Source of the DNA: Leucoraja ocellata
Taxonomy: Eukaryota
Assembly: GCA_036785375.1 (NCBI GenBank)
Contig: JAWMAR010003751.1
Span: 1-64,000, forward strand
Direction: 5' to 3'
Length of the DNA: 64,000 nucleotides
The notes beneath the pieces are model-generated. The model worked only from the letters and a program-made list of their open reading frames with translations. It was not told the DNA's origin and ran no database searches. The translations under genes were made by a program, and so were the position numbers. Positions 1-62,462 of the stretch are shown in pieces. Numbering within the stretch: position 1 is the stretch's first letter; every line of letters starts with the position of its first letter.

Positions 1-307
1 ATACAATCACCGAAACAGATCACAGTTACTGAAGGCGGGACTGTGCGACTAAACTGTGCATTTGTTGGCGACACAATCAGTTCAATTGGGGCCATTAGTT
101 GGTACAAAGACGTGGAAACTCGTGCCGTTTCCAACACGAGCGGCGACTATTATGGTCGCGTTCTGAAAAATAATTCACCGGGAATTCTAAATGAATCCAT
201 CGACATCACTGACCTCAACATGAACGATACAGGAAGGTATTACTGCCGAGTGCGTGTTTTCACAGGGGAAATATATAATGGTCACGGCACAGATGTCACG
301 GTCACAC
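1..307 (+). CDS. Ig V-set (pre-joined VJ-type) exon V1 of an NKp30/NCR3-like receptor, unit A; 5' end outside the window; frame open
   Basis: Frame 1 reads IQSPKQITVTEGGTVRLNCAFVGDTISSIGAISWYKDVETRAVSNTSGDYYGRVLKNNSPGILNESIDITDLNMNDTGRYYCRVRVFTGEIYNGHGTDVTVT. It has the B-strand Cys, C-strand Trp, DxGxYYC and a J-like GxGTxVTV. Phase-1 donor C|GTAAGT at 307/308. By eye it resembles NKp30 (IGSVTWFRD...FRGRL...YVCRVEV...GNGTRLVV). Confidence 0.85.
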
Positions 308-2051: not shown

Positions 2052-2209
2052 CCCGGATCCCTGTAGAAAGCCCTGCATGGGGATTACGTTGGCAGCTGCT
2101 GGTAATGGGAGTGAAACTTGCAATGTTCATTGTGATCAACGTTATAATAGTTTTCATCATCCGCTCATGGGAGTCTTGTGGATTTGCCAGCCGGACAAAA
2201 GAAGCCTAA
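2052..2209 (+). CDS. Stalk + transmembrane + short cytoplasmic exon, unit A (not in the ORF track)
   Basis: Acceptor TTTTATTCCTTCAG|. Phase-1 reading gives (P)RIPVESPAWGLRWQLLVMGVKLAMFIVINVIIVFIIRSWESCGFASRTKEA*, with a ~24-aa hydrophobic stretch containing Lys and Asn. Stop TAA at 2207-2209; donor G|GTAAGA at 2224/2225. Phase matches the V exon donor. Confidence 0.85.
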
Positions 2210-2335
2210 CAGGCTGGTCAAACGGTAAGATGATTGCCAGCTGCATGTGTGGGTTGTATTAGCAGCTGAGGTCACTGGACAATGGTGAATTTTATTGTCA
2301 CCTGCGAGGTGCCACCACAGTGAAAATATTTCCTT

Positions 2336-3562: not shown

Positions 3563-3740
3563 ACCATAAGTGTTGAACTCCCTACATATTTGAATCAACT
3601 CATCCAACAGATCAAACCATGAAAAGCAAACTCATTACTGAATCAACATTAGCTCAGTCAGCTGTGGTGATACTGTTGTGGGCCATTTGGGATAATGTAA
3701 TTTGTGAAATCTTACACTCATTAAAACTCCACATTGCCTT
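3563..3740 (+). other. Terminal 3'-UTR exon of unit A with ATTAAA polyadenylation signal at 3720-3725
   Basis: Strong acceptor TTTTATTTTCACAG|ACC; non-repeat sequence conserved in four copies; ATTAAA followed by a U/GU-rich tract (CTTCTTGTTTGTT). The 3' end is approximate. Confidence 0.65.
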
Positions 3741-7776: not shown

Positions 7777-8856
7777 CAGTGGCTTGCAAAAGTTTTACAA
7801 ACCCCATGAACTTTTCCACATTTTGTCACGTTACAACCACAAATGTAAATGTATTTTATTGGGATTTTATGTGATAGACCAACACAAAGTGGTGCAAAAT
7901 TGTGAAGTGGAAGGAAAATGATACATGGTTTTCAATTTGTTTTACAAATAAAAAACTGAAAAGTGTGGCATGCAAAAGTATTCAGCCGCCCTGAGTCAAT
8001 ACTTTGTAGAACCACCTTTCGCTGCAATTACAGCTGCAAGTCTTTTGGGGTATGTCTCTACCAACTTTGCACATCTAGAGACTGAACTTTTTGCCCATTC
8101 TTCTTTGCAAAATAGCTCAAGCTCAGTCCGATTGGATGGAGAGCGTCTGTGAACAGCAATTTTCAAGTCTTGCCAGAGATTCTCAATTGGATTTAGTTCT
8201 GGACTTTGACTGGGCCATTCTAACACATGAATATACTTTGATCTAAACCATTCCATTGTAGCTCTGGCTGTATGTTTAGGGTCGTTGTCCTGCTGGAATG
8301 TGAACCTCCGCCCCAACCTCAAGTCTTTTGCAGACTCTAACAGGTTTTCTTCCAAGATTGCCCTGTATTTGGCTCCATCCATCCTCCCATCAACTCTGAC
8401 CAGCTTCCCTGTCCCTGCTGAAGAAAAGCATCCCCACAGCATGATGCTGCCACCACCATGTTTCACAGTGGGGATGATGTGTACAGGGTGATGTGCAGTG
8501 ATAGTTTTCCGCCACACATAGCATTTTGCATTTAGGCCAAAAACTTCAATTTTGTTCTCATCTGACCAGAGCACCTTCCTCCACATGTTTGCTGTGTCCC
8601 CCACATGGCTTGTGGCAAACTGCAAACGGGACTTCTTATGGCTTTTTTCAACAATGGCTTTCTTCTTGCCAATCTTCCATAAAGGCCCGATTTGTGGAAT
8701 GCACGACTAATAGTTGTCCTGTGGACAGATTCTCCCACCTGAGCTGTGGATCTCTGCAGCTCCTCCAGAGTTACCATGGGACTCTTGCCTGCTTCTCTGA
8801 TCAATGCTCCCCTTGCCCGGCCTGTCAGTTTAGGTGGACGGCCATGTCTTGGTAGG
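7777..8856 (-). mobile_element. Tc1-family DNA transposon, left part (unit A)
   Basis: TA|CAGTGGCTTGCAAAAG TIR; transposase WSDE...[14 protein letters not shown]...[10 protein letters not shown]...[15 protein letters not shown] (DD34E). Confidence 0.95.
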
Positions 8857-8889
8857 CGGACAAAAGAAGCCTAACAGGCTGGTCAAACG
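8857..8889 (+). pseudogene. Orphan 3' remnant of the TM exon (truncated paralog A')
   Basis: CGGACAAAAGAAGCCTAACAGGCTGGTCAAACG|GTAAGA matches the end of the TM exon (2192-2224) and is fused directly to Tc1 sequence at 8856/8857. Confidence 0.8.
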
Positions 8890-10028
8890 GTAAGAGGAAT
8901 GCCAGCTGCATGTGTGGGTTGTATTAGCAGCTGAGGTCACTGGACAATGGTGCATTTTACTGTTACCTGCGAGGTGCAAATATTGTCCTTACAACCTAAA
9001 CTAAACTAAACTAAACTAAACTAAACTAAACTAAACTAAACTAAACTAAACTTAACTAAACTTAACTTAACTTAACTTAACTTAACTTAACTTAACTTAA
9101 CTTAACTTAACTTACTTAACTTAACTTAACTTAACTAAACTAAACTAAACTGAACACAACTAAACTAAACTAAACTAAAACAAACTTAACTAAATTTAAA
9201 CAAACCAAACTAAACAAAATTAAACTAATCTAAGCGAAACTAAACTAAACTTAAATTAACTTAAATTAACAACTAAACTAATCTTCAATACATTCAGTTC
9301 CATTGAAATCCCACACTCCCTTGGCCACGCTCTCATTACACTCCTACCATCAAGTAGAAGATATCTGAGTCTGAAAACCGTGACCACAAGGTTCAAGAAC
9401 AGCTTCTTCCCTGCAACTATCAGGCTCTTGAACATCACAGAAGACCAGGCTCAACTATGAACATGAATGGACTTCCTTGTGTTGCACCAAGGATCTTGTA
9501 TTTTCGTGTTTGCACCAGATACACATTTGTTGTTGGTTTTGTTTATTATATTCTATCTAAGTGTGTTGTATGTACAGCCCTGTTACGCTGCTGCCAGTAA
9601 GAATTCCATTGTCCGGTTGTCGGTACAACAAACTTAGATAAAATATAATCAACAAAACCAACAACAAATTTGTAACTAGTGCAAACCCTCTTGAATCTTG
9701 CAACGTAGACTTACTGCAACAAAACAAAGGCGACATGACAGGGAAAACTAGACCGAACCTGGCCAGAAATAAGGAGCTCATCCAGGACTTGGATGGTACT
9801 TGGATAGGTGGGTTTAGTATAGCTGAGACATGTTGGCCGGTGTGGGGAGTGTGGGCCTTAAGATCCTGTTTCCACGCTGTATCACTCCATGACTCTATGA
9901 CTAGGAGCTATGTGGACACATACTTGACAAGAACTTTAATAACAATAATGTAGTCATTGTGTTCAATGCTATTGATGTTTTTGTGCCTGTACATGTGGTA
10001 TAATAATATATCTATTTTATTTTCACAG

Positions 10029-23856: not shown

Positions 23857-24014
23857 GCCGGATCCCTGTAGAAAGCCCTGCATGGGGATTACGTTGGCAG
23901 CTGCTGGTAATGGGAGTGAAACTTGCAACGTTCATTGTGATCAACGTTATAATAGTTTTCATCATCCGCTCATGGGAGTCTTGTGGATTTGCCAGCCGGA
24001 CAAAAGAAGCCTAA
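23857..24014 (+). CDS. Stalk/TM/cytoplasmic exon, unit B (frame intact although all unit-B V exons are broken)
   Basis: (R)RIPVESPAWGLRWQLLVMGVKLATFIVINVIIVFIIRSWESCGFASRTKEA*; donor at 24029/24030. Confidence 0.8.
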
Positions 24015-25031
24015 CAGGCTGGTCAAACGGTAAGAGGATTGCCAGCTGCATGTGTGGGTTGTATTAGCAGCTGAGGTCACTGGACAAGGTGAATCATATT
24101 GTCACCTGCGAGGAGCCACCACAGTGAAAATTTAACTGAACTTAACTGAACTGAACTGAACTTAACTTAACTTAACTTAACTTAACTAAACTAAAACAAA
24201 CTTAACTAAATTTAAACAAAACAAACTAAACAAAATTAAACTAATCAAAGCGAATCTAAACTAAACTTAAATTAACAACTAAACTAATCTTCAATACATT
24301 CAGTTCCATTGAAATCCCGCACTGCCTTGGCCACGCTCTCATTTCACTCCTACCATCAAGTAGAAGATATCTGAGTGAAACCGTGACCACAAGGTTCAAG
24401 AACAGCGTTTTCCCTGCAATTATCAGGCTCTTGAACCCCACAGAAGACTAGGCTCAACTATGGACATGAATGGACTTCGTTGTGTTGCACCAAGGATCTT
24501 GTATTTTCGTGTTTGCACCGGATACACATTTATTTTCGGTTTGTTTATTATATTTTATCTAAGTGTGTTGTATGTACAGCCCTGTTACGCTGCTGCCAGT
24601 AAGAATTCCATTGTCCGCTTGTCGGTACAACAAACTTAGATAAAATATAATCAACAAAACCAACAACAAATTTGTAACTAGTGCAAACCCTCTTGAATCT
24701 TGCAACGTAGACTTACTGCAACATAACAAAGGCGACGTGGCAGGGAAAACTAGACCGAACCTGGCCAGAAGTAAGGAGCTCATCCAGGACTTGGATGGTA
24801 CATGGATAGGTGGGTTTAGTGTAACTGAGACATGTTGGCTGGTGTGGGGAGTGTGGGCCATAAGATCATGTTTCCACGCTGTATCACTCCATGACTCTAT
24901 GACTAGGAGCTATGTCGACACATACTTGACAAGAACTTTAATAACAATAATGTAGTCAATTGTGTTCAATGCTATTAATGTTTTTGTGCCTGTACATGTG
25001 GTATAATAATATATCTATTTTATTTTCACAG

Positions 25032-29861: not shown

Positions 29862-31476
29862 CAGTGGTTTGCAAAAGTTTTTCAAACCCCATGAACTTTT
29901 CCACATTTTGTCACGTTACAACCACAAATGTAAATGTATTTTATTGGGATTTTATGTGATAGACCAACACAAAGTGGTGCAAAATTGTGAAGTGGAAGGA
30001 AAATGATCCATGGTTTTCAATTTTTTTTACAAATAAAAAACTGAAATGTGTGGCGTGCAAAATTATTCAGCCGCCCTGAGTCAATACTTTGTAGAACCAC
30101 CTTTCGCTGCAATTACAGCTGCAAGTCTTTTGGGGTATGTCTCTACCAGCTTTGCACATCTAGAGACAACTTTTTGCCCATTCTTCTTTGCAAAATAGCT
30201 CAAGCTCAGTCAGATTGGATGGAGAGCGTCTCTGAACAGCAATTTTCAAGTCTTGCCAGAGATTCTCAATTGGATTTAGGTCTGGACTTTGACTGGGCCA
30301 TTCTATCACATGAATATGCTCTGATCTAAACCATTCCAATGTAGCTCTGGCTGTATGTTTAGGGTCGTTGTCCTGCTGGAAGGTGAACCTCCGCCCCAGT
30401 CTCAAGTCTTTTGCAGATTCTAACAGGTTTTCTTCCAAGATTGCCCTGTATTTGGCTCCATCCATCTTCCCATCAACTCTGACCAGCTTCCCTGTCCCTG
30501 CTGAAGAAAAGCATCCCCAGAGCATGATGCTGCCACCACCATGTTTCACAGTGGGGATGGTGTGTTCAGGGTGATGTGCAGTGTTAGTTTTCCGCCACAC
30601 ATAGCGTTTTGCATTTAGGCCAAAAACTTCAATTTTGTTCTCATCTGACCGGAGCACCTTCCTCCACATGTTTGCTATGTCCCCCACATGGCTTATGGCA
30701 AACTGCAAACGGGACTACTTATGGCTTTTTTCAACAATGCCTTTCTTCTTGCCACTCTTCCATAAAGGCCCGATTTGTGGAATGCACGACTAATAGTTGT
30801 CCTGTGGACAGATTCTCCCACCTGAGCTGTGGATCTCTGCAGCTCCTCCAGAGTTACCATGGGCCTCTTGGCTGCTTCTCTGATCAATGCTATCCTTGCC
30901 CGGCCTGTCAGTTTAGGTGGACGGCCATGTCTTGGTAGGTTTGTAGTTGTGCCATACTCTTTCCATTTTCGGATGATGGGTTGAACAGTGCTCCGTGAGA
31001 TGTTCAAAGCTTGGGATATTTTTTTTATAACCTGACCCTGCTTTAAACTTCTCCACAACTTTATCGCTGACCTGTCTGGTGTGTTCCTTGGGCTTCATAA
31101 TGGTGTTTGTTCACTAATGTTCTCTAACAAACCTCTGAGGCCTTCACAGAACAGCTGTATTTATACTGAGATTAGATTACACACAAGTGGACTTTATTTA
31201 CTAATTAGGTGACTTCTGAAGGCAATTGGTTGCACTGGATTTTATTTAGGGGTATCAGAGTAAAGGGGGCTGAATACTTTTGCACGACACACTTTTCAGT
31301 TTTTTATTTGTAAAAAAATTGAAAACCATGTATCATTTCCCTTCCACTTCACAATTATGCGCCACTTTGTGTTGGTCTATCACATAAAATCCCAATAAAA
31401 TACATTTACGTTTGTGGTTGGAACGTGACAAAATGTGGAAACGTTGAAGGGTTATGAATACTTTTGCAAGCCACTG
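29862..31476 (-). mobile_element. Full-length (~1.6 kb) Tc1 transposon with long TIRs; transposase frameshifted
   Basis: TA|CAGTGG.TTGCAAAAG ... CTTTTGCAAGCCACTG ends; ~200-bp inverted termini; transposase split over ORFs 30913-31098, 30693-31058 and 30160-30708. Confidence 0.95.
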
Positions 31477-39041: not shown

Positions 39042-39086
39042 GAAGCCGTCCAAAGATGCAGTGGAGTGTGGTCGCTTGGTCCGTTC
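39042..39086 (+). CDS. Leader (signal peptide) exon of unit C, ATG at 39056, truncated by an assembly gap
   Basis: TTTGTTTCTGCCCACAG|GAAGCCGTCCAAAGATG, reading MQWSVVAWSV...; paralog of 17408-17455. Confidence 0.65.
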
Positions 39087-39814: not shown

Positions 39815-40145
39815 GTGCTGTTGGATCCGATGAATCGATCATACAATCACCGAAACAGATCAGTTACTGAAGGCGGGACTGTGCGGCTAAACTGTGCAGT
39901 TGTTGGCGACACAATCCGTTCAATTGGGTCCATTAGTTGGTACAAAGACGTGGAAACTCGTGACGTTTCCAACAGGAGCGGCGACTATTATGGTCGCGTT
40001 CTGAAATATAATTCACCGGGAATTATAAAAGAATCCCTCGAAATCACTGACCTCAAAATGACCGATACAGGAAGGTATTACTGCCGATGGACTAGTTTCA
40101 CAGGGGAAATATATAATGGGCCCGGCACAGATGTCACGGTCACAC
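39815..40145 (+). pseudogene. Ig V exon V5 (unit C), single 2-nt deletion near the start
   Basis: ATCAGTT vs ATCACAGTT in paralogs. The rest is open: VTEGGTVRLNCAVVGDTIRSIGSISWYKDVETRDVSNRSGDYYGRVLKYNSPGIIKESLEITDLKMTDTGRYYCRWTSFTGEIYNGPGTDVTVT. Splice sites intact; 331 nt. Confidence 0.8.
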
Positions 40146-41842: not shown

Positions 41843-42148
41843 GAACTGTTATACAATCACCGTCTAATGTCAACGTTACTGAAGGTGGGACAGTGCGGAT
41901 TAATTGTACATTTGTTGGCAAGACAATTGGGTTCATTAGTTGGTACAAAGACGTGGAAACTCGTGCCGTTTCCAACAGGAGCGGCGACTATTATGGCCGC
42001 GTTCTGAAAAATAATTCACCGGGAATTCTAAAAGAATCCATCGACATCACTGACCTCAACATGAACGATACAGGAAGGTATTACTGCCGAGTGAGTGCTT
42101 TCACAGGGGAAATATATAATGGTCACGGCACAGATATCACGGTCACAC
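41843..42148 (+). CDS. Intact Ig V (VJ-type) exon V6 of an NKp30/NCR3-like receptor, unit C
   Basis: TTTCTGGTTTCAG| (G)TVIQSPSNVNVTEGGTVRINCTFVGKTIGFISWYKDVETRAVSNRSGDYYGRVLKNNSPGILKESIDITDLNMNDTGRYYCRVSAFTGEIYNGHGTDITVT |GTAAGT. Length 306 nt, symmetric phase 1-1. Confidence 0.88.
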
Positions 42149-43321
42149 GTAAGTTTGCGTTACCTTAACTTTGTCTTCACTGTTCTAAAACATCATTCTT
42201 AACACCGGCCACCACACGCCTGAACAACCGAGCTTTGTCAGTTCAGATTTAAGCATAGAATGTCATTTTATAAGCAGGAACCAAGGGCCACAGTTTAAGA
42301 ATAACGGGTAAGCCAATTAGAACGGAGACGAGGAAACACCTTTTGACAGAGAGTTGTGAGTCTGTGGAATTCTCTGCCTCAGAGGGCAGTGGAGGCCGGT
42401 TCTCTGGATGCTTTCAAGAGAGACCTAGATAGGGCTCTTAAAGATAGCGGAGTCAATGGATATGGGGAGAAGGCAGGAACGGGGCACTGATTGTGAATGA
42501 TCAGCCATGATCACAGTGAATGGCGGTGCTGGCTTGAAGGGCCGAATGGCCTCCTCCTGCACCTATTGTCTATTGTCTACTGCCCACACCGGCCAACAAT
42601 GTCCCAGCTACACTAGTCCCACCTGCCTGCGCCTGGTCAATATCCCACAAAACCTGTCCTATCCATGTACCTGTCCAACTGCCTCTTAAACGATGGGATA
42701 GTCCCAGCCTCAACGACCTCTGGCAGCTTGCTCCATACACCGACTATTCTTTCCATCGAAGCGCAATCCAGTTCCTCCTTAATTCACATGCACGCTCCGC
42801 TCACTCCGACTCCTCCATATATCAGGGGTAAATTACACCTGTTCATTACCTATCAGGACGCACGTCTTTGGGATGAGAGAGGAAGCAGTAACGTCCAGGG
42901 GTAACACAGGGAATAACACGGAGAACGTGCAAACTCCACACCGGCAGTCAGCATTGAGGCCGGGATACTGGCCCTCAGAGGCAGCAGCTGCTTCGGCTAT
43001 TCCCTCAAGCAATCAAGGTGGAGATAAAAGGAACAGCAGATGCGGGGTTACAAACAAAAAGACACAAAGTGCTGGAGTAACTCAGCGGGCAACGCAGCAT
43101 CTGTGGAGAACATGGATAGGTGACATTGTGGAATGCTGAAGAAGGGTGCCGACCTGAAATGTCGCCTATACACGGGGTTTGGAGATTGCATCCTTCACGT
43201 GGTCCGCCCTGTTTCGACGAATGCAATCAACCTGGTGTGCACAATCAAATAAGGTCAAATAGAACAAGTTGTCCAACAACTTTGGGCAATGTACGCCATA
43301 CGCAAGGAGAGGAATCGTATA

Positions 43322-43698
43322 CATGTTCTCCACAGATGCTGCCTGACCCGCTGAGTTACTCCAGCACTCTGTGAAACGTCACCTATCCATGTTCTCCACA
43401 GATGCTGCCTGACCCGCTGAGTTACTCCAGCACTCTGTGAAACGTTACCTATCCATGTTCTCCACAGATGCTGCCTGACCCGCTGAATTACTCCAGCACT
43501 CTGTGAAACGTCACCTATCCATGTTCTCCACAGATGCTGCCTGACCCGCTGAGTTACTCCAGCACTCTGTGAAACGTCACCTATCCATGTTCTCCACATA
43601 TGCTGCCTGACCCGCTGAGTTACTCCAGCACTCTGTGAAACGTCACCTATCCATGTTCTCCACAGATGCTGCCTGACCCGCTGAGTTACTCCAGCACT
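43322..43698. repeat. 66-bp minisatellite, unit C (~5.7 copies)
   Basis: Same unit as 1440-1883. Confidence 0.95.
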
Positions 43699-43867: not shown

Positions 43868-44025
43868 GCCGGATCCCTGTAGAAAGCCCTGCATGGGGAT
43901 TACGTTGGCAGCTGCTGGTAATGGGAGTGAAACTTGTAACGTTCATTGTGATCAACGTTATAATAGTTTTCATCATCCGCTCATGGGAGACTTGTGGATT
44001 TGCCAGCCCGACAAAAGAAGCCTAA
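43868..44025 (+). CDS. Stalk/TM/cytoplasmic exon, unit C
   Basis: TTTTATTCCTACAG| (R)RIPVESPAWGLRWQLLVMGVKLVTFIVINVIIVFIIRSWETCGFASPTKEA*; donor at 44040/44041. Confidence 0.85.
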
Positions 44026-45445
44026 CAGGCTGGTCAAACGGTAAGAGGATTGCCAGCGCCATGTGTGGGTTGTATTAGCAGCTGAGGTCACTGGACAATG
44101 GGGCATTTTATTGTCACCTGCGAGGTGCCACCACAGTGAAAATGTTGTCCTTACAAACTAAACTAAACTAAACTAAACTAAACTAAACTAAACTAAACTA
44201 AACTAAACTGAACTAAACTAAACTAAATTAAACTAAACTAAACTAAACGAAACTCAGCTAAATTAAACTGAACTAAATCAAACTAAATTAAACTAAACTA
44301 AACTAAACGAAACTGAGCTAAATTAAACTTAACTTAACTAAACTTAACCAAACCAAACTAAACAAAATTAAACTAACCTAAACTAAAATAAATTAAACTA
44401 AAATAAATTACACTAAACTAAACTAAACTAAACTAAAACAAACTTATCTAAATTTAAACAAAGGAATCCAAAGCATAGCAAACAAAACTAAACTAAACTA
44501 AATTAACCTAAACTAAACATAGAAACGAAACTAAAATAAACTAAACTAAACAGAAATACTCTAAACGAAACGAAACTTAACTAAACTAAGCTCAACTTAA
44601 CTTAACTAAACAAAAACAAACTTAACTAAACTTAACCAAACCAAACCAAACTAAATTAAACAAATCTAAACTAAACTTAAATTAACAACTAAACTAATCT
44701 TCAATACATTCAGTTCCATTGAAATCCCGCACCCCCTTGGCCACGCTCTCATTACACTCCTACCATCAAGTAGAAGATATCTGAGTCTGAAAACCGTGAA
44801 CACAAGGTTCAAGAACAGCTTCTTCCCTGCAACTATCAGGCTCTTGAACCCCACAGAAGACTAGGCTCAACTATGAACATGAATGGACTTCCTTGTGTTG
44901 CACCAAGGATCTTGTATTTTCGTGTTTGCACCAGATACACATTTATTGTCGGTTTTGTTTATTATATTTTATCTAAGTGTGTTGTATGTACAGGCCTGTT
45001 ATGCTGTTGCCAGTAAGAATTCCATTGTCCGGTTGTCGGTACAACAAACTTAGATAAAATATATTCAACAAAACCAATAACAAATTTGTAATTAGTGCAA
45101 ACCCTCTTGAATCTTGCAACGTAGACTTACTGCAACAAAACAAAGGCGAGCTGGCAGGGAAAACTAGACCGAACCTGGCAAGAAATAAGGAGCTCATCCA
45201 GGACTTGGATGGTACATGGATAGGTGGGTTTAGTGTAGCTGAGACATGTTGGCCGGTGTGGGGAGTATGGGCCATAAGATCCTGTTTCCACGCTGTATCA
45301 CTCCATGACTCTATGACTAGGAGCCATGTGGACACATACTTGACAAGAACTTTAATAACAATAATGTAGTCAATTGTGTTCAATGCTATTAATGTTTTTG
45401 TGCCTGTACATGTGGTATAATAATATATCTATTTTATTTTCACAG

Positions 45446-49312: not shown

Positions 49313-50410
49313 TTGGGTGAGAACACTTATTCAGACTTTGTGTCTATTTTTGTAAACCAGCATTTGCAGTTCCTTGTTTCTACAATATATACAGGTGTTT
49401 CTGCTATAACTCGACATCTGATTCTTGAAGCAACCTCGCCATTATGTCAATTGGAAACGAGGGTTTGGGCTCGAGTGTTTCTGAAATTAACGCTTAACCC
49501 CCAAACAATTATCCAAAATAATGAGATTTTTTCATAGCTAATATAATAATATATATTAGCTATGAAACAAATCCTTGAAAATACACACACACATATATAT
49601 ATATATATATTACTGTAAGCTAAAATGCTAATGCTACATTGTTAAATCGATTAGTATTGTACAATATATTGCTTGTAAATTCAATGGCTTCCTGCAGCGA
49701 AACCGACAGCCTGAGTTCTCAAGAAACAATGATCATTGATTACTACAGGGAGGTTACATGGAAACAGTTTTTCGTTATTCCCGACTGTTTTCCCACAAGG
49801 CCGTTTTTTTTCCTGCATGTAAATTTGCATAATACAGTGGCTTGCAAAAGTTTTTCAAACCCCATGAACTTTTCCACATTTTGTCACGTTACAACCACAA
49901 ATGTAAATGTATTTTATTGGGATTTTATGTGATAGACCAACACAAAGTGGTGCAAAATTGTGAAGTGGAGGAAAATAATACATGGTTTTCAATTTGTTTT
50001 ACAAATAAAAAACTAAAAAGTGTGGCGTGCAAAAGTATTCAGCCCCCCTGAGTCAATACTTTGTAGAACCACCTTTCGCTGCAATTACAGCTGCAAGTCT
50101 TTTGGGTATGTCTCTACCAGCTTTGCACATCTAGAGACTGAACTTTTTGCCCATTCTTCTTTGCAAAATAGCTAAAGCTCAGTCAGATTGGATGCAGAGC
50201 GTCTGTGAACAGCAATTTTCAAGCCTTGCCAGAGATTCTCATCAGAGATTGGATTTAGGTCTGGACTTTGACTGGGCCATTCTAACACATGAATATGCTT
50301 TGATCTAAACCATTCCATTGTAGCTCTGGCTGTATGTTTAGGGTCGTTGTCCTGCTGGAAGGTGAACCTCCGCCCCAGTCTCAAGTCTTTTGCAGACTCT
50401 AACAGGTTTT

Positions 50411-52989
50411 AGCAGGATTAATTAAAAATGTCATAGTTAGGGACTCGTTGGGAACAAGTGACCACAATATGGTCGAATTCCATATTCAAATAGAAGGGGA
50501 GCAGGTTGAAGCTCAGGCTAGGGTGCTTATTCTAAATAAGGGGGATTATGAAGGTATGAGGACTGAGCTGATCAAAGTTGACTGGGATAGCAGACTCAAG
50601 AATAAGACGGTACATGAGCAGTGGTGTACGTTTAAGGGTATACTGTATAACCTTCAAGAAAAATTTATTCCTATGAAGAAAAAAAGGGGTAAGGGTAAGA
50701 AAAGTCAGCCATGGCTCAGTAAAACTATAAAGGATAGTATTCGGCTGAAGGCAAGGGCATATAAGGTAGCCAGAGATAGTGGGAGGGTAGAGGATTGGGA
50801 AGCATTTAAAGGTCAGCAAAAAATAACTAAGAGATTAATTAAGACGGGGAAAATAGACTATGAAAGGAATTTAGCGAACAACATAAAAACTAATAGTAAG
50901 AGTTTTTATAGCTATATAAAAAGAAAAAGGGTGGCTAAGGTGAACGTTGGTCCATTGGAGGGTGAGACTGGAGAGTTGTTGGTGGGGAACATGGAAATGG
51001 CAAAGGCATTAAACGAGTATTTTGTATCAGTCTTCACCATAGAAGACACAAAAAATATTCCAACGCTGGATAAACAGGGGGCGGTAGGAATGGAGGAGCT
51101 AAATACTATTAAGATCACCAAGGAGGTGGTATTAGGGAAATTAATGAGACTGAAGGAGGATAAATCCCCTGGGCCTGATGGATTACATCCAAGGGTCTTG
51201 AGGGAGATAGCGGTGGGGATTGTGGATGCATTGGTGATAATTTTCCAAAACTCCCTGGAGGCAGGAACGGTCCCAGTGGATTGGAAAATGGCCAATGTAA
51301 CACCTATATTTAAAAAAGGAAGTAAACAGAAGGCGGGTAACTATAGACCGGTTAGTCTAACATCGGTGGTGGGTAAAATGTTAGAGACAATTATTAAAGA
51401 AACACTAACGGGGCACTTGGATAAACATGACTTCATCGGACAGAACCAGCATGGTTTTGTGAAGGGGAAGTCCTGTTTAACGAATCTGCTCGAATTCTTT
51501 GAGGAAGTAACAACCCGGGTGGATAAAGGGGAACCGGTGGATGTGGTATACTTGGACTTCCAAAAGGCTTTTGACAAGGTGCCACATAAGAGACTATTGC
51601 TAAAAATAAAAAAATATGGGATTGGGGGTAATATATTAGCATGGGTAGAGGATTGGCTAACAAATAGGAAGCAGAGAGTGGGGATAAATGGTTCATACTC
51701 GGGATGGCAACCGGTAACTAGCGGGGTTCCGCAAGGGTCGGTGCTGGGACCCCAGTTGTTCACAATTTATATAAATGATTTGGAGGAGGGAACCAAGTGT
51801 AATATATCAAAATTTGCGGACGATACAAAAATGGGAGGAAAAGTAGGGGATGAGGAGGATAGGAAGAGTCTGCAAAAGGATATTGATAAGCTAGGTGAGT
51901 GGGCAACAACTTGGCAGGTTAAATTTAATACTAATAAATGTGAAGTCATTCACTTTGGAAAAAAAATGATAGGGCAAGTTATTTTCTAAATGAGGAGGAG
52001 CTGCGTTGTAATGCAACGCAAAGGGATCTAGGGATATTAGTACATGAATCACTGAAAGTTAGTATGCAGGTGCAGCAAGCAATCAGGAAGGCCAATGGAG
52101 TTTTGGCCTTTATTGCTAGGGGGATTGAGTATAAAAACACGGAGGTCTTGCTGCAGCTGTACACAGTATTATTGAGACCACATTTGAAATACTGTGTACA
52201 GTTCTGGGGTCCATACTTAAGAAAGGATGTACTAGCCCTGGAGGCAGTGCAGCGAAGGTTTACAAGATTAATTCCTGCAATGAGGGGATTGACATATGAG
52301 GAAAGGTTAAGTAGGCTGGAACTCTACTCTTTGGAGTTTAGAAGAATGAGAGGCGATCTCATTGAAACATATAAGATCGTGAGGGGCCTTGATCGGGTGG
52401 ATGCACCGAGGATGTTCCCAATGATCGGGGAAACTAGAACTAGGGGACATAGTTGCAGAATAAGGGGGGGCTCTTTTAAAACTGAGATGAGGAAGAACTT
52501 CTTCACCCAGAGGGTGGTTAATTTATGGAATTCACTGCCCCGGGGAGCAGTGGAAGCAGAAACTTTAAATATATTTAAGACTAAAATAGATGTTTTTTTA
52601 GCTGCCAAGGGGATAAGGGGCTACGGGGAGAGGGCAGGGATATGGACCTAGGTATGGTTAGTATAGTAAGACCTGAGTGATCTCCTGGACAAGTGTCGAT
52701 CGCCTGGATTGGGGTCGGAGAGGAATTTCCCGGATTTTTTTCCCGAATTGGACCTGGGTTTTTATCCGGTTTTTGCCTCCCCCAGGAGATCACGAGGTTC
52801 TTGGGGTGGAGAGGGGTGATAGCGGTATAAAGGGGAGGGTAGTGTCTTGTGTTCTGTGTCTTGTGTCTACTGTTTGTGGGTAAGTGTGTCTGTTTAGTGT
52901 TCAGCCATGAGCGAATGGCGGTGCGGGCTCGACGGACCTGGTGGTCTACTCTCGCACCTACTTTCTATGTTTCTATGTTTCTATGTTTT
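50411..52989 (+). mobile_element. Young 5'-truncated CR1 LINE (end of endonuclease + RT, ORF2 nearly intact)
   Basis: 513-aa ORF (SDHNMV...YLDFQKAFDKVPH...KFADD) continued by the 195-aa ORF after one frameshift at a homopolymer (~51958); (TTCTATGT)n tail. Confidence 0.95.
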
Positions 52990-59110: not shown

Positions 59111-62100
59111 TTTATATAATAAAGGTGCAGTTTAAAGGTCACGAGGGAGCAGCTGTTGTGAGTCAGATACCTGCTGATTTCCCCCAGCAGTTTCTATTGT
59201 ATTATACTTGTATCGGATCCAGGGTAAGGCGGGAGAATGACAGTCAGAGCAGTATACTGTTCTGGATGTCAGATGTGGGAGGTCATGGTGTCGGATGGCC
59301 CTCCAGACGTCCACATCTGCACCAGGTGCAGCGAGATGGGGCTCCTAAGGGACCGTATTAGGATCCTGGAGCAGCAGCTAGCTGACCTCTGCCTGGTCAT
59401 GGAGAGTGATGAGGTCATAGAGGGGAGTTATAGGGAGGTGGTCACTCCAAAACCACGGGAGAGAGACATGTGGGTCACGTTAAGGAAGGGCAAGAAGCAG
59501 AGGCAGGAACGAGTGAGTGCTCCAATGTCAGTACACCTCGCAAATAAGTACTCCTGTTTGAGTACGGAAGGGGGTGACAGCCTACCCCGGGGTAGTGACA
59601 GCGGACGGGCCTCCAGCACAGAGACCGGCCCAGTTGCTCCAAAAGGTAGGGAAAAAAGAGGGCAATATTAATTGGGGACTCTATTGTTAGGGGGTCGGAT
59701 AGGCGATTCTGTGGACGCAGTCGGGAGACCAGGATGGTGGTCTGCCTCCCTGGTGCCAAGGTCTCGGACGTGTCTCAACGCATCCAAGATATCCTTAAAT
59801 CAGAGGGAGAGGAGCCTGAGGTTGTGGTACATATAGGTACCAATGACATAGGTAAAAAAACGGAAGAGGTCCTGAAGGGAGGTTTTAGGGAGTTGGGAGG
59901 AGAGTTAAGAAAAATGACCAAAAAGGTAACAATCTCAGGATTACTGCCTGTGCCACGCAACAGTGAGAGTAGGAATGGAGCGAGGTGGAGGATAAATGCG
60001 TGGCTGAAAGACTGGTGCAGACGGCAGGGATTCAAGTTCCTGGATCATTGGGACTTATTTTGGGGAAGGTGGGACCTGTACAGAAAGGATGGATTGCACT
60101 TGAACCCGAGGGGGACCAATATCCTAGCGGGGAAATTTGCAAAGGCTGCTGGGGAGACTTTAAACTAGAATGGTTGGGGCGAGGGACTCAAATAGCGAAA
60201 GGTAGTAGACAGAATGGGAGGCAGGAAGCAGAAAAGGGAAGCACTCGGACACAAGAGGAGTAAGAAAAAAAAGGAAATAAACAGAGAATAAGAGACGGGG
60301 GTTTCTTAAATTGCATATTTTAATGCTAGGAGCATTGTAAGAAAAGTGGATGAGCTTAGAGTCTGGATAGACACCTGGAAGTATGATGTTGTGATATAAT
60401 TATGGAGAGGGTCAGAACTGGACCTAGGGTTGAGATTTTTGATTGGAGAAAGGCTAACTTTGATGAGATGCGAGATGATTTAAAAGGAGTGAACTGGGAC
60501 AGTTTGTTTTATGGGAAGCATGTAGAAGAGAAATGGAGGACATTTAAAGGTGAATTTTTAAGAGTACAGAATATTTATGTTCCTGTTCGGTTGAAAGGAA
60601 ACAGTAAAAATTGGAAAGAGCCCTGGTTTTCAAGGGAAATTGGACATCTTGTTCGGAAAAAGAGGGAGATCTACAATAATTATAGGCAGCATGAAGTAAA
60701 TGAGGTGCTTGAGGAGTATAAGGAATGTAAAAAGAATCTAAAGAAAGAAATTAGAAAAGCTAAAAGAAGATATGAGGTTGCTTTGGCAAGTAATGTGAAA
60801 GTAAATCCAAAGGGTTTCTACAGCTATATTAATAGCAAAAGGATAACGAGGGATAAAATTGGTCCATCGGAGAGACAGAGTGGACAGTTATCTGCAGAGC
60901 CAAAAGAGATGGGGGAGATATTGAACATTTGTTTTTCTTCGGTATTCACCAAGGAGAAGGATATTGAATTATGTGAGGTAAGGGAAACTAGTAGAGTAGC
61001 TATGGATACTATGAGGTTCAAAGTAAAAGAAGTACTGACACTTTTGAAAAATATAAAAGTGGATAAGTCTCCAGGTTCTGACAGGATATTTCCTAGGACA
61101 TTGAGGGAAGTTAGTGTAGAAATAGCCGGGGCTATGACAGAAATATTTCAAATGTCATTAGAAACGGGAATAGTCCCCGAGGATTGGCGTACTGCGCATG
61201 TTGTTCGATTGTTTAAAAAGGGTTCTAAGAGTAAACCTAGCAATTATAGACCTGTTAGTTTGACTTCAGTGGTGGGCACATTAATGGAAAAGATACTTAG
61301 AGATAATATATATATAAGCATCTAGATAAACAGGGTCTGATTAGGAACAGTCAACATGGATTTGTGCCTGGAAGGTCATGTTTGACTAATCTTCTTGAAT
61401 TTTTTGAAGAGGTTACTAGGGAAATTGACGATGGTAAAGCAGTGGATGTTGTCTATATGGACTTTAGTAAGGCCTTTGACAAGGTTCCTCATGGAAGGTT
61501 GGTTAAGAAGGTTCAACTGTTGGGTATAAATGCAGGAATAGCAAGATGGATTCAACAGTGGCTGAATGGGAGAAGCCAGAGGGTAATGGTGGATGGCTGT
61601 TTGTCGGGTTGGAGACAGGTGACTAGTGGGGTGCCTCAGGGATCTGTGTTGGGTCCTTTGTTGTTTGTCATGTACATCAATGATCTGGATGAAGGTTTGG
61701 TAAATTGGATTAGTAAGTATGCAGATGATACCAAGATAGGGGCTGTTGTGGATAATGAAGAGGATTTCCAAAGTCTACAGAGTGATTTAGGCCATTTGGT
61801 AGAATGGGCTTAAAGATGGCAGATGGAGTTTAATGCTGATAAATGTGAGGTGCTACACCTTGGCAGGACAAATCAAAATAGGACGTACATGGTAAATGGT
61901 AGGGAATTGAAGAATACAGTTGAACAGAGGGATCTGGGTATAACCGTGCATAGTTCCTTGAAGGTGGAATCTCATATAGATAGGGTGGTAAAGAAAGCTT
62001 TTGGTATGCTAGCCTTTATAAATCAGAGGATTGAGTATAGAAGCTGGGATGTAATGTTAAAATTGTACAAGGCATTGGTGAGACCAAATCTGGAGTGTGG

Positions 62101-62462
62101 TGTACAATTTTGGTAGCCCAATTATAGGAAGGATGTCAACAAAATAGAGACCGTACAGAGGAGATTTACTAGAATGTTGCCTGGGTTTCAACAACTAAGT
62201 TACAGAGATAGGTTGAATAAGTTAGGTCTTTATTCTCTGGAGCGCAGAAGGTTAAGGGGAGACTTGATAGAGGTCTTTAAAATGATGAGAGGGATAGACA
62301 GAGTTGATGTGGACAAGCTTTTCCCTTTGAGAATAGGGAAGATTCAAACAAGAGGACATGACTTCAGAATTAAGGGACATAAGTTTAGGGGTAATATGAG
62401 GGGGAACTTCTTTACTCAGAGAGTGGTAGCGGTGTGGAATGAGCTCCCAGTGGAAGTGGTGG
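59111..62462 (+). mobile_element. Near full-length degenerate CR1 LINE: ORF1 (zinc finger, leucine zipper, SGNH esterase) and ORF2 (endonuclease largely deleted, RT)
   Basis: ORF1 has CSGC...HICTRC, LRDRIRILEQQL, GDS, VHIGTND and DGLHLN. The ORF2 start NARSIVRKVDELR jumps at ~60395 to the post-EN region. RT motifs MDFSKAFDKVPH, PQGSVLGP, YADD; several stops. Confidence 0.92.

Follow-up and report, generated by a model that had tools for sequence, protein, structure and literature searches.

What kind of receptor is encoded by a membrane exon that places an arginine, a lysine and an asparagine along one helix and then ends in a short tail? The exon at 2052-2224 of a 64,000-nucleotide stretch of Leucoraja ocellata DNA (the window, hereafter) raises this question. 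Its product is a short stalk followed by a hydrophobic helix and a 15-residue tail that lacks tyrosine. The original prediction was of an activating, adaptor-coupled receptor whose transmembrane (TM) segment looked intermediate between those of NK receptors and TCR chains. The exon limits are borne out by an AG acceptor and a GT donor in phase 1, and the spacing of the three residues (Lys nine after Arg, Asn eight after Lys) and the tail with its one Cys are present as described. The exon likely belongs to an already known receptor family; its activating helix is of a batoid Lys/Asn type, and inhibitory siblings exist. An activating receptor was right in type, but the NCR3-like identity and the paired nature of the family had been overlooked. 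Taken whole, the best reading is of tandem activating receptors of the NCR3/NKp30 family whose Lys is predicted to bind a zeta/FcR-gamma-type ITAM adaptor dimer, and we consider this reading probable.

A tandem array of receptor units

The locus consists of three tandem units (leader, one to three V exons, TM exon) that are 92-96% identical over kilobases (Table 1). As judged by eye, the open reading frames of the window comprise receptor genes and transposons only. The transposon-like frames, at 7996-8706, 30160-30714 and 13798-15800 on the minus strand and at 50403-52651 and 60387-63488 on the plus strand, were assigned, again by eye, to Tc1/mariner-type transposase remnants, a BEL/Pao-type LTR element remnant and CR1-type LINE reverse-transcriptase frames. 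Each intron between V and TM exons also holds tandemly arrayed copies, differing in number, of a 66-base unit from a widespread repeat (1436-1882, 23054-23687 and 43318-43698).

Table 1. Receptor exons and marked residues in the window
Feature	Positions	Strand	Basis or remark
Single-exon VJ-type Ig domain of unit 1	1-307	+	Cut by window start; open frame; phase-1 GT donor at 308; Pfam V-set 2e-13
Stalk/TM/tail exon of unit 1	2052-2224	+	Phase 1; AG acceptor 2050-2051; GT donor 2225-2226
Arg of unit 1 TM exon	2087-2089	+	Translation
Best 21-residue helix core, unit 1	2099-2161	+	Hydropathy
Lys of unit 1 TM exon	2114-2116	+	Nine residues after Arg
Asn of unit 1 TM exon	2138-2140	+	Eight residues after Lys
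Tail Cys of unit 1 TM exon	2177-2179	+	Sole Cys of tail
Stop codon of unit 1 TM exon	2207-2209	+	15 bases upstream of donor
Candidate start of downstream 3' untranslated exon	3563-3630	+	Pyrimidine tract then AG; sequence only
Truncated remnant of TM/tail exon 3' end, helix part missing	8854-8900	+	Sequence comparison
Leader exon of unit 2, cut by N gap	17422-17455	+	tblastn with P0004 leader, 9/11 identical
V exon of unit 2, frameshifted	18503-18823	+	Sequence comparison
V exon of unit 2, one frameshift	19436-19766	+	Sequence comparison
V exon of unit 2, frameshifted, acceptor reads TG	21558-21889	+	Sequence comparison
TM/tail exon of unit 2, intact	23857-24029	+	98.8% identical to unit 1
Leader exon of unit 3, cut by N gap	39056-39086	+	Sequence comparison
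V exon of unit 3, frameshifted near its start	39815-40145	+	Sequence comparison
V exon of unit 3, open frame, both splice sites intact	41843-42148	+	Pfam V-set 9.9e-13
TM/tail exon of unit 3, intact	43868-44040	+	97.1% identical to unit 1

Two of the six V exons, one in unit 1 and one in unit 3, are open, and in each a single exon covers the domain from its first strand, past the GxGT motif, up to a phase-1 donor; the one ending at 307 is in phase 1 with the TM exon at 2052-2224. The other four carry frameshifts and N gaps interrupt both leaders, so that the window holds no demonstrable complete gene. The four affected V exons (in 18503-21889 and at 39815-40145) carry small indels, one of them also lacking its acceptor, and may be real pseudo-exons or assembly errors beside the N gaps.

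This state of the V exons, together with the truncated TM remnant, could mean that the window copies form a largely decaying tandem array of pseudogenes or mis-assembled duplicates, in a family that functions through other copies; the near-identity of the units over kilobases and the presence of four N gaps fit such a view. It is nevertheless improbable, in our assessment, since all three TM exons keep their frame and both splice sites, the two open V exons are in phase with them, and the single-base indels beside the gaps may themselves be assembly errors. Multi-V genes are also normal in the family (P0165 has three V domains and P0166 two), and exons like those of unit 1 are covered by RNA of a relative.

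The RNA coverage comes from a search of sequencing runs in which five of the 24 listed runs shared 24-38% of words and no RNA run was listed as containing the sequence. Four of the 24 were aligned to positions 1-2400 at 85% likeness. In the stranded RNA run X15, depth was 15-23 over the V exon, 1.8-5 over the TM exon and zero over the unique intron stretch 321-400, and the first mates all fell on one strand, consistent with RNA of the plus strand; run X8 gave the same pattern at lower depth. A contig from X2 (a run of unrecorded type) agrees with 2053-2224 at all but one difference and departs from the window at both splice sites, and a contig from X1 runs through both. Fixed differences place the reads in a relative or a paralogue. 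The splice joint from V to TM exon is not among the 15 joints listed (1838 more exist), and intron repeats swamp the tables of joints and loose ends. Both exons are transcribed in a related species.

At the DNA level the three TM exons are 97.1-98.8% identical, and 4 of 51 amino-acid columns vary; the LAM/LAT/LVT variation noted originally is found at 23857-24029 and 43868-44040. The constancy of Arg, Lys and Asn in the three copies had been offered as evidence of their importance. It is uninformative because the exons are so alike: the computed chance that any three named residues stay unchanged in three copies is about 0.78.

V domains and paired siblings

The V domains place the exon in its wider family. 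Searched against 1.84 billion representatives, the V exon had 542 matches at E <=0.001. In the best 150 of these, the nearest is the skate protein P0004 (Rhinoraja longicauda), at 67% over the V domain, and the closest single-V proteins come from skate, stingrays, electric ray and sharks; several of these relatives, stingray ones included, carry the NCBI name "NCR3-like". Further members, from Mobula and Pristis, came out of a profile search (15 matches). Two word-index searches of proteins, started from the V exon, gave 64 and 3 candidates and recovered none of the existing relatives.

Against the PDB, a profile of 19 family sequences found human NKp30 as its best single-domain match, at 66 bits versus 53 for TCR alpha and 51 for SIRP-alpha; five multi-V antibody constructs outscored it by summing domains. 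NKp30 also came out on top for the horn-shark sister row P0047 (4/4 matches at E <=1e-7) and for the bichir protein P0142 (4/5 matches at E <=1e-6). The window sequence by itself placed NKp30 at rank 26 only, and a single sawfish sequence did not return it at E <=1e-7. The AlphaFold2 model of P0004 has a V fold and one long helix (129-192), which does not delimit the membrane span; Foldseek with this model gave TCR V-alpha and antibody domains, with no NKp30 among the roughly 45 matches listed, and the ESM Atlas returned generic V-set clusters for P0004.

A quick SH-aLRT tree was built from 87 V domains over 107 columns, drawn from 53 chosen proteins (at most two domains each, three for P0165) and the two open window exons, with outgroup labels (TCR-like, NITR-like) assigned by inspection in this analysis. 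The window groups with P0004 (support 98), and the batoid family falls on one side of a branch with support 93, next to shark NCR3-like rows and apart from SIRP and TCR-like rows; the clade with support 93 that includes frog and bichir NCR3 also contains long-branch rows. By profile, by the PDB matches of clade rows and by the tree, the V domain is closer to NKp30 than to Ig, TCR or SIRP, the single-sequence and Foldseek searches being non-discriminating. The tree and profile suggest that the genes likely belong to an elasmobranch NCR3/NKp30-like family.

Like NCR3/NKp30, the batoid receptors have one exon for the whole VJ-type V domain, J-like GxGT strand included, then a short stalk, a TM helix whose outer half carries a basic residue, and a short tail. 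Binding of B7-H6 and assembly with zeta/FcR-gamma are further properties of NCR3/NKp30. Unlike NKp30, whose basic residue is Arg, the batoid helix has at that depth a Lys with an Asn two turns below. The outer-half Arg marks mammalian NKp30 and not the whole family, because a frog member of the clade carries Lys and many of those from sharks are neutral. Humans have only one NCR3 gene, unlike the batoid family with its tandem expansion, multi-V members and separate ITIM-like siblings with near-identical V domains. In sharks, NCR3 forms a divergent, MHC-linked multigene family, and linkage to the MHC (class III), or a place on an MHC paralogon (NCR3H), would be expected of an NCR3 gene. P0142, the bichir protein in the clade, is clustered with a gene model bearing the name PRC2A, and an NKp30-like protein of Polypterus senegalus (P0163) is fused in a gene model of that name, which hints at a mammalian MHC class III neighbourhood in bichir.

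NCR3 has been described as a VJ gene that does not rearrange and that stands at the base of the antigen-receptor tree, in an article that also lists published nurse-shark NCR3 sequences (MT914154-MT914161; PMC12227049), and an inhibitory-acting form of NKp30 is reported to be made by splicing (PMC6514059). A literature search for NCR3 membrane domains in skates and rays found none, a weak result since key shark NCR3 papers lay outside its reach; charged members and members with ITIMs may already appear in Kinlein et al. 2021, Flajnik et al. 2012 or the supplements to them.

The window genes are likely the activating members of an activating/inhibitory pair, and the predicted activating type, with a membrane Lys and no tail motif, is supported. 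Among the relatives, all eight neutral-TM siblings examined carry one to three ITIM-like tail motifs, and V domains of the two signalling types are identical at 99/105 (P0169 vs P0174) or 95/105 positions (P0168 vs P0173), so the receptor family is a paired one. In Rhinoraja, Hypanus and Mobula hypostoma the locus numbers of activating and inhibitory models follow one another, on the same chromosome-length records, and going by these numbers the two kinds of gene would adjoin. The pairing is found in the relatives and not inside the window, where seven inhibitory-type queries for an ITIM-type exon gave nothing below E 0.18 in the 64,000 nucleotides.

In Mobula birostris, near-identical activating TM exons (49/51) sit on V domains only 48/105 alike (P0168 vs P0166), and the tree intermixes activating and inhibitory rows. 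Like TM exons on two V lineages, and like V domains on opposite signalling modules, point to exon shuffling or gene conversion in the cluster. A basic-TM, short-tail member beside neutral-TM ITIM members is also the arrangement of KIR2DS/KIR2DL, SIRP-beta/alpha and the teleost NITR and LITR, although the batoid V domains fall outside the SIRP and NITR-like rows of the tree (the latter label being one given by inspection).

The membrane helix and its proposed resemblance to TCR chains

Conservation of the helix was examined in 13 batoid sequences of activating type, namely the three window copies and all ten relatives found with this TM segment, the latter from six other species; the relatives were partly found with a profile that includes the segment. 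Invariant in all 13 are the Lys, Leu+1, Phe+4, Ile+7, Asn+8, Val+12, Ile+15, Gln-7 and Leu-10 (numbered from the Lys). Of the three residues originally said to be unchanged, Lys and Asn stand at 13/13, while Arg drops to 11/13, being Cys in Mobula hypostoma P0169 and His in Pristis P0170. The nine non-skate relatives (P0017, P0019, P0026 and P0165-P0170, from stingrays, devil rays and sawfish) all have Thr at +11 and all have Glu four residues before the Lys, where skates have Val; this Glu, one turn above, could possibly form an intra-helix salt bridge. Pfam gave only chance-level matches for the TM exon, and the ESM Atlas gave no usable match.

Conservation clusters on one face of the helix, with a best period of 96-98 degrees and a permutation p of 0.003-0.015 that becomes 0.05-0.11 once the four anchor columns are dropped. 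The Asn lies 80 degrees from the Lys on this same conserved face, and the Arg 180 degrees from it. In Kyte-Doolittle scans with windows of 19, 21 and 23 residues the best windows always include the Lys and never the Arg, so that this simple hydropathy scan puts the Lys within the predicted helix and does not bear out the refuting condition named originally, a helix without it. Its position in these windows is 4-8 for the window copy and 3-8 across three proteins, and only 15 hydrophobic residues follow it.

The tail is more variable than the helix. Its shortness and lack of Tyr hold in the window, but the models of four of the ten relatives have Tyr after the helix and five of the ten have longer tails. 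The stingray activating-type tails P0019, P0026 and P0165 carry a membrane-proximal Tyr-Arg-Ala-Leu (YxxL) without the ITIM residue at -2, possibly a sorting motif. In the Rhinoraja model P0004 the codon corresponding to the window's stop (2207-2209) reads Glu and the frame continues past the conserved GT donor site, so that a longer tail may come from a downstream exon in this species. Palmitoylation of the tail Cys, also suggested originally, is possible for the window, but a Cys at that position occurs in only 4/13 sequences, all from skates; as a family trait it was rejected, a Cys falling within the first eight tail residues in 7/13.

A further observation concerns the sturgeon Acipenser ruthenus, whose SIRP-beta-1-like proteins P0054 and P0154 have the batoid arrangement Val-Lys-Leu-x5-Ile-Asn-x7-basic (residues 381-397 of P0054). 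Among 118 proteins of at most 1000 residues, a hydrophobic Lys-x7-Asn pattern was found in the batoid family and this sturgeon pair only, and that limited sample gave no shark example. The V domains of P0054 group with SIRP and its helix is identical to the batoid ones at 6-8/28 positions; the likeness may be a common ancient module or convergence.

Along the helix, Arg, Lys and Asn follow the order of TCR alpha/delta membrane segments, but at wider spacing (+9/+8, against +5/+5 in TCR alpha) and with an Arg that is variable and outside the hydrophobic core. The description of the helix as intermediate between NK receptors and TCR chains is not supported by these comparisons: none of the best windows contains the Arg, which faces away from the Lys and gives way to Cys or His in two relatives. 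A TCR-type triad with two basic residues is unsupported for the same reasons, and the TCR alpha/delta feature of two invariant, membrane-embedded basic residues plus an Asn is absent. Membership in the TCR family was likewise rejected, there being no C1 constant domain, V and J lying in one exon, and rearranging segments being absent. In full-length relatives the V domain is followed directly by the TM exon, the window exon has no stalk Cys, and searching the PDB with the TM exon at E <=10 gave no TCR chain and three matches, all to photosystem PsbH.

A bolder version of the TCR comparison would make the helix a membrane hub, a relic related to TCR alpha/delta in which the Asn joins two receptor chains and the Arg and Lys recruit two different signalling dimers. 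In the TCR, the Asn is reported to stabilise the alpha-beta coiled coil and the Arg and Lys to bind zeta and CD3 (PMC13107469). Such a hub would agree with the shared residue order, with the invariant Asn, with the opposite faces of Arg and Lys, as two docking sites require, and with the place given to NCR3 at the antigen-receptor root (PMC12227049); even the His of Pristis could be excused, as CD89 is reported to tolerate His for Arg (PMC13107469). Yet 25 residues separate the Arg from the cytoplasmic boundary, one species has a Cys in its place, the Asn shares the face of the Lys, and the Lys/Asn spacing recurs without the Arg in the sturgeon protein. With the wider spacing and the lack of a TCR match, a C1 domain and a stalk Cys, these points make the hub highly improbable.

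The sturgeon likeness allows one more proposal, to which we give a very low probability as well: an ancient activating module, common to bony-fish SIRP-beta-like receptors, in which the outer Arg and a conserved Gln/Glu-Lys-Phe-Ile-Asn-Thr face would hold together a TCR-like multi-helix complex that includes two signalling dimers. If this were true, the batoid module would be a living model of membrane assembly in a non-rearranging precursor of antigen receptors.

Depth of the lysine and the choice of adaptor

Basic TM residues are reported to bind the Asp pair of an adaptor dimer (PMC13107469, PMC1440944, PMC5371597), and mammalian NKp30 to use an outer-half Arg with zeta/gamma (PMC5371597, PMC13107469). 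Depth in the membrane was counted here as residues to the first charged or strongly polar cytoplasmic residue. The batoid Lys is at depth 16 in the window and in four of five batoid relatives measured, and at 19 in P0004; the Arg of four Arg-type proteins of the NCR3 clade (two sharks, bichir, frog) is at 16, 16, 17 and 19, and the Lys of a frog NCR3-clade protein at 17. The Lys of two amniote SIRP-beta-like proteins is closer to the cytoplasmic side, at 11 and 13, but that of the sturgeon SIRP-beta-like protein is at 16, so depth does not cleanly split the classes.

On this basis the batoid Lys would be a positional stand-in for the Arg of other NCR3s. Its predicted partner is the acidic pair of an ITAM adaptor dimer, and the CD3-zeta/FcR-gamma type is the likeliest; the face formed by Gln-7, Lys, Leu+1, Phe+4, Ile+7, Asn+8, Val+12 and Ile+15 would pack on the adaptor, and the Arg would act as a boundary residue only. 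The Asp of the adaptors is reported at TM position 6 in Fc-gamma and 9 in DAP12 (PMC1440944). One catfish LITR with a Lys is reported to bind FcR-gamma and zeta-like adaptors and not DAP12; the same source describes the Lys as dispensable, which counts against a Lys-adaptor reading (PMC4810170). Also counting against zeta/gamma is a 2014 screen that reportedly detected no FcR-gamma gene in sharks (PMC4016189).

The same receptors might instead couple through their Lys to DAP12 (TYROBP), as KIR2DS, NKp44, SIRP-beta and zebrafish Nitr9 do, in which case the batoid lineage would have changed adaptor together with the switch from Arg to Lys. Every type I DAP12 partner in mammals is reported to have a Lys (PMC1440944; for human partners also PMC13107469), whereas Fc-gamma partners prefer Arg, and changing Arg to Lys in Fc-alpha-RI strongly lowered assembly (PMC1440944); the mammalian rule and this loss therefore favour DAP12. 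Fish NITRs are reported to signal via Dap12 (PMC2442602), the spacing Lys-Leu-x5-Ile-Asn-x7-basic is common to the sturgeon SIRP-beta-1-like protein, and the Lys falls at position 7-8 of a 23-residue window. Set against this, the Lys of DAP12 partners is central (position 9), while the batoid Lys stands at 4-8 depending on window length and 16 residues from the boundary, farther out than in the amniote SIRP-beta-like proteins. DAP12 partners are reported to share no TM feature except the Lys (PMC13107469), whereas the batoid helix conserves eight positions; a Glu also stands one turn above the Lys in all nine non-skate relatives. A literature search for DAP12 in cartilaginous fish found no confirmation. 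We regard coupling to DAP12 as an unlikely version of the family's biology, though the closest rival. Should an adaptor be bound at all, we estimate that a zeta/gamma-type dimer is the somewhat probable partner, DAP12 a possible but less likely one, and any other adaptor improbable.

NKp30 is one of the few NK receptors that can be traced to cartilaginous fish. The present evidence has no bearing on the origin of the TCR. A paired NKp30 family that is expanded in skates and rays, with Lys at the depth of the mammalian Arg, would offer a direct test of whether the mammalian rule that Lys means DAP12 and Arg means zeta/gamma applied in early jawed vertebrates, and the family may provide a marker of activating NK-like cells or T cells in these fish.
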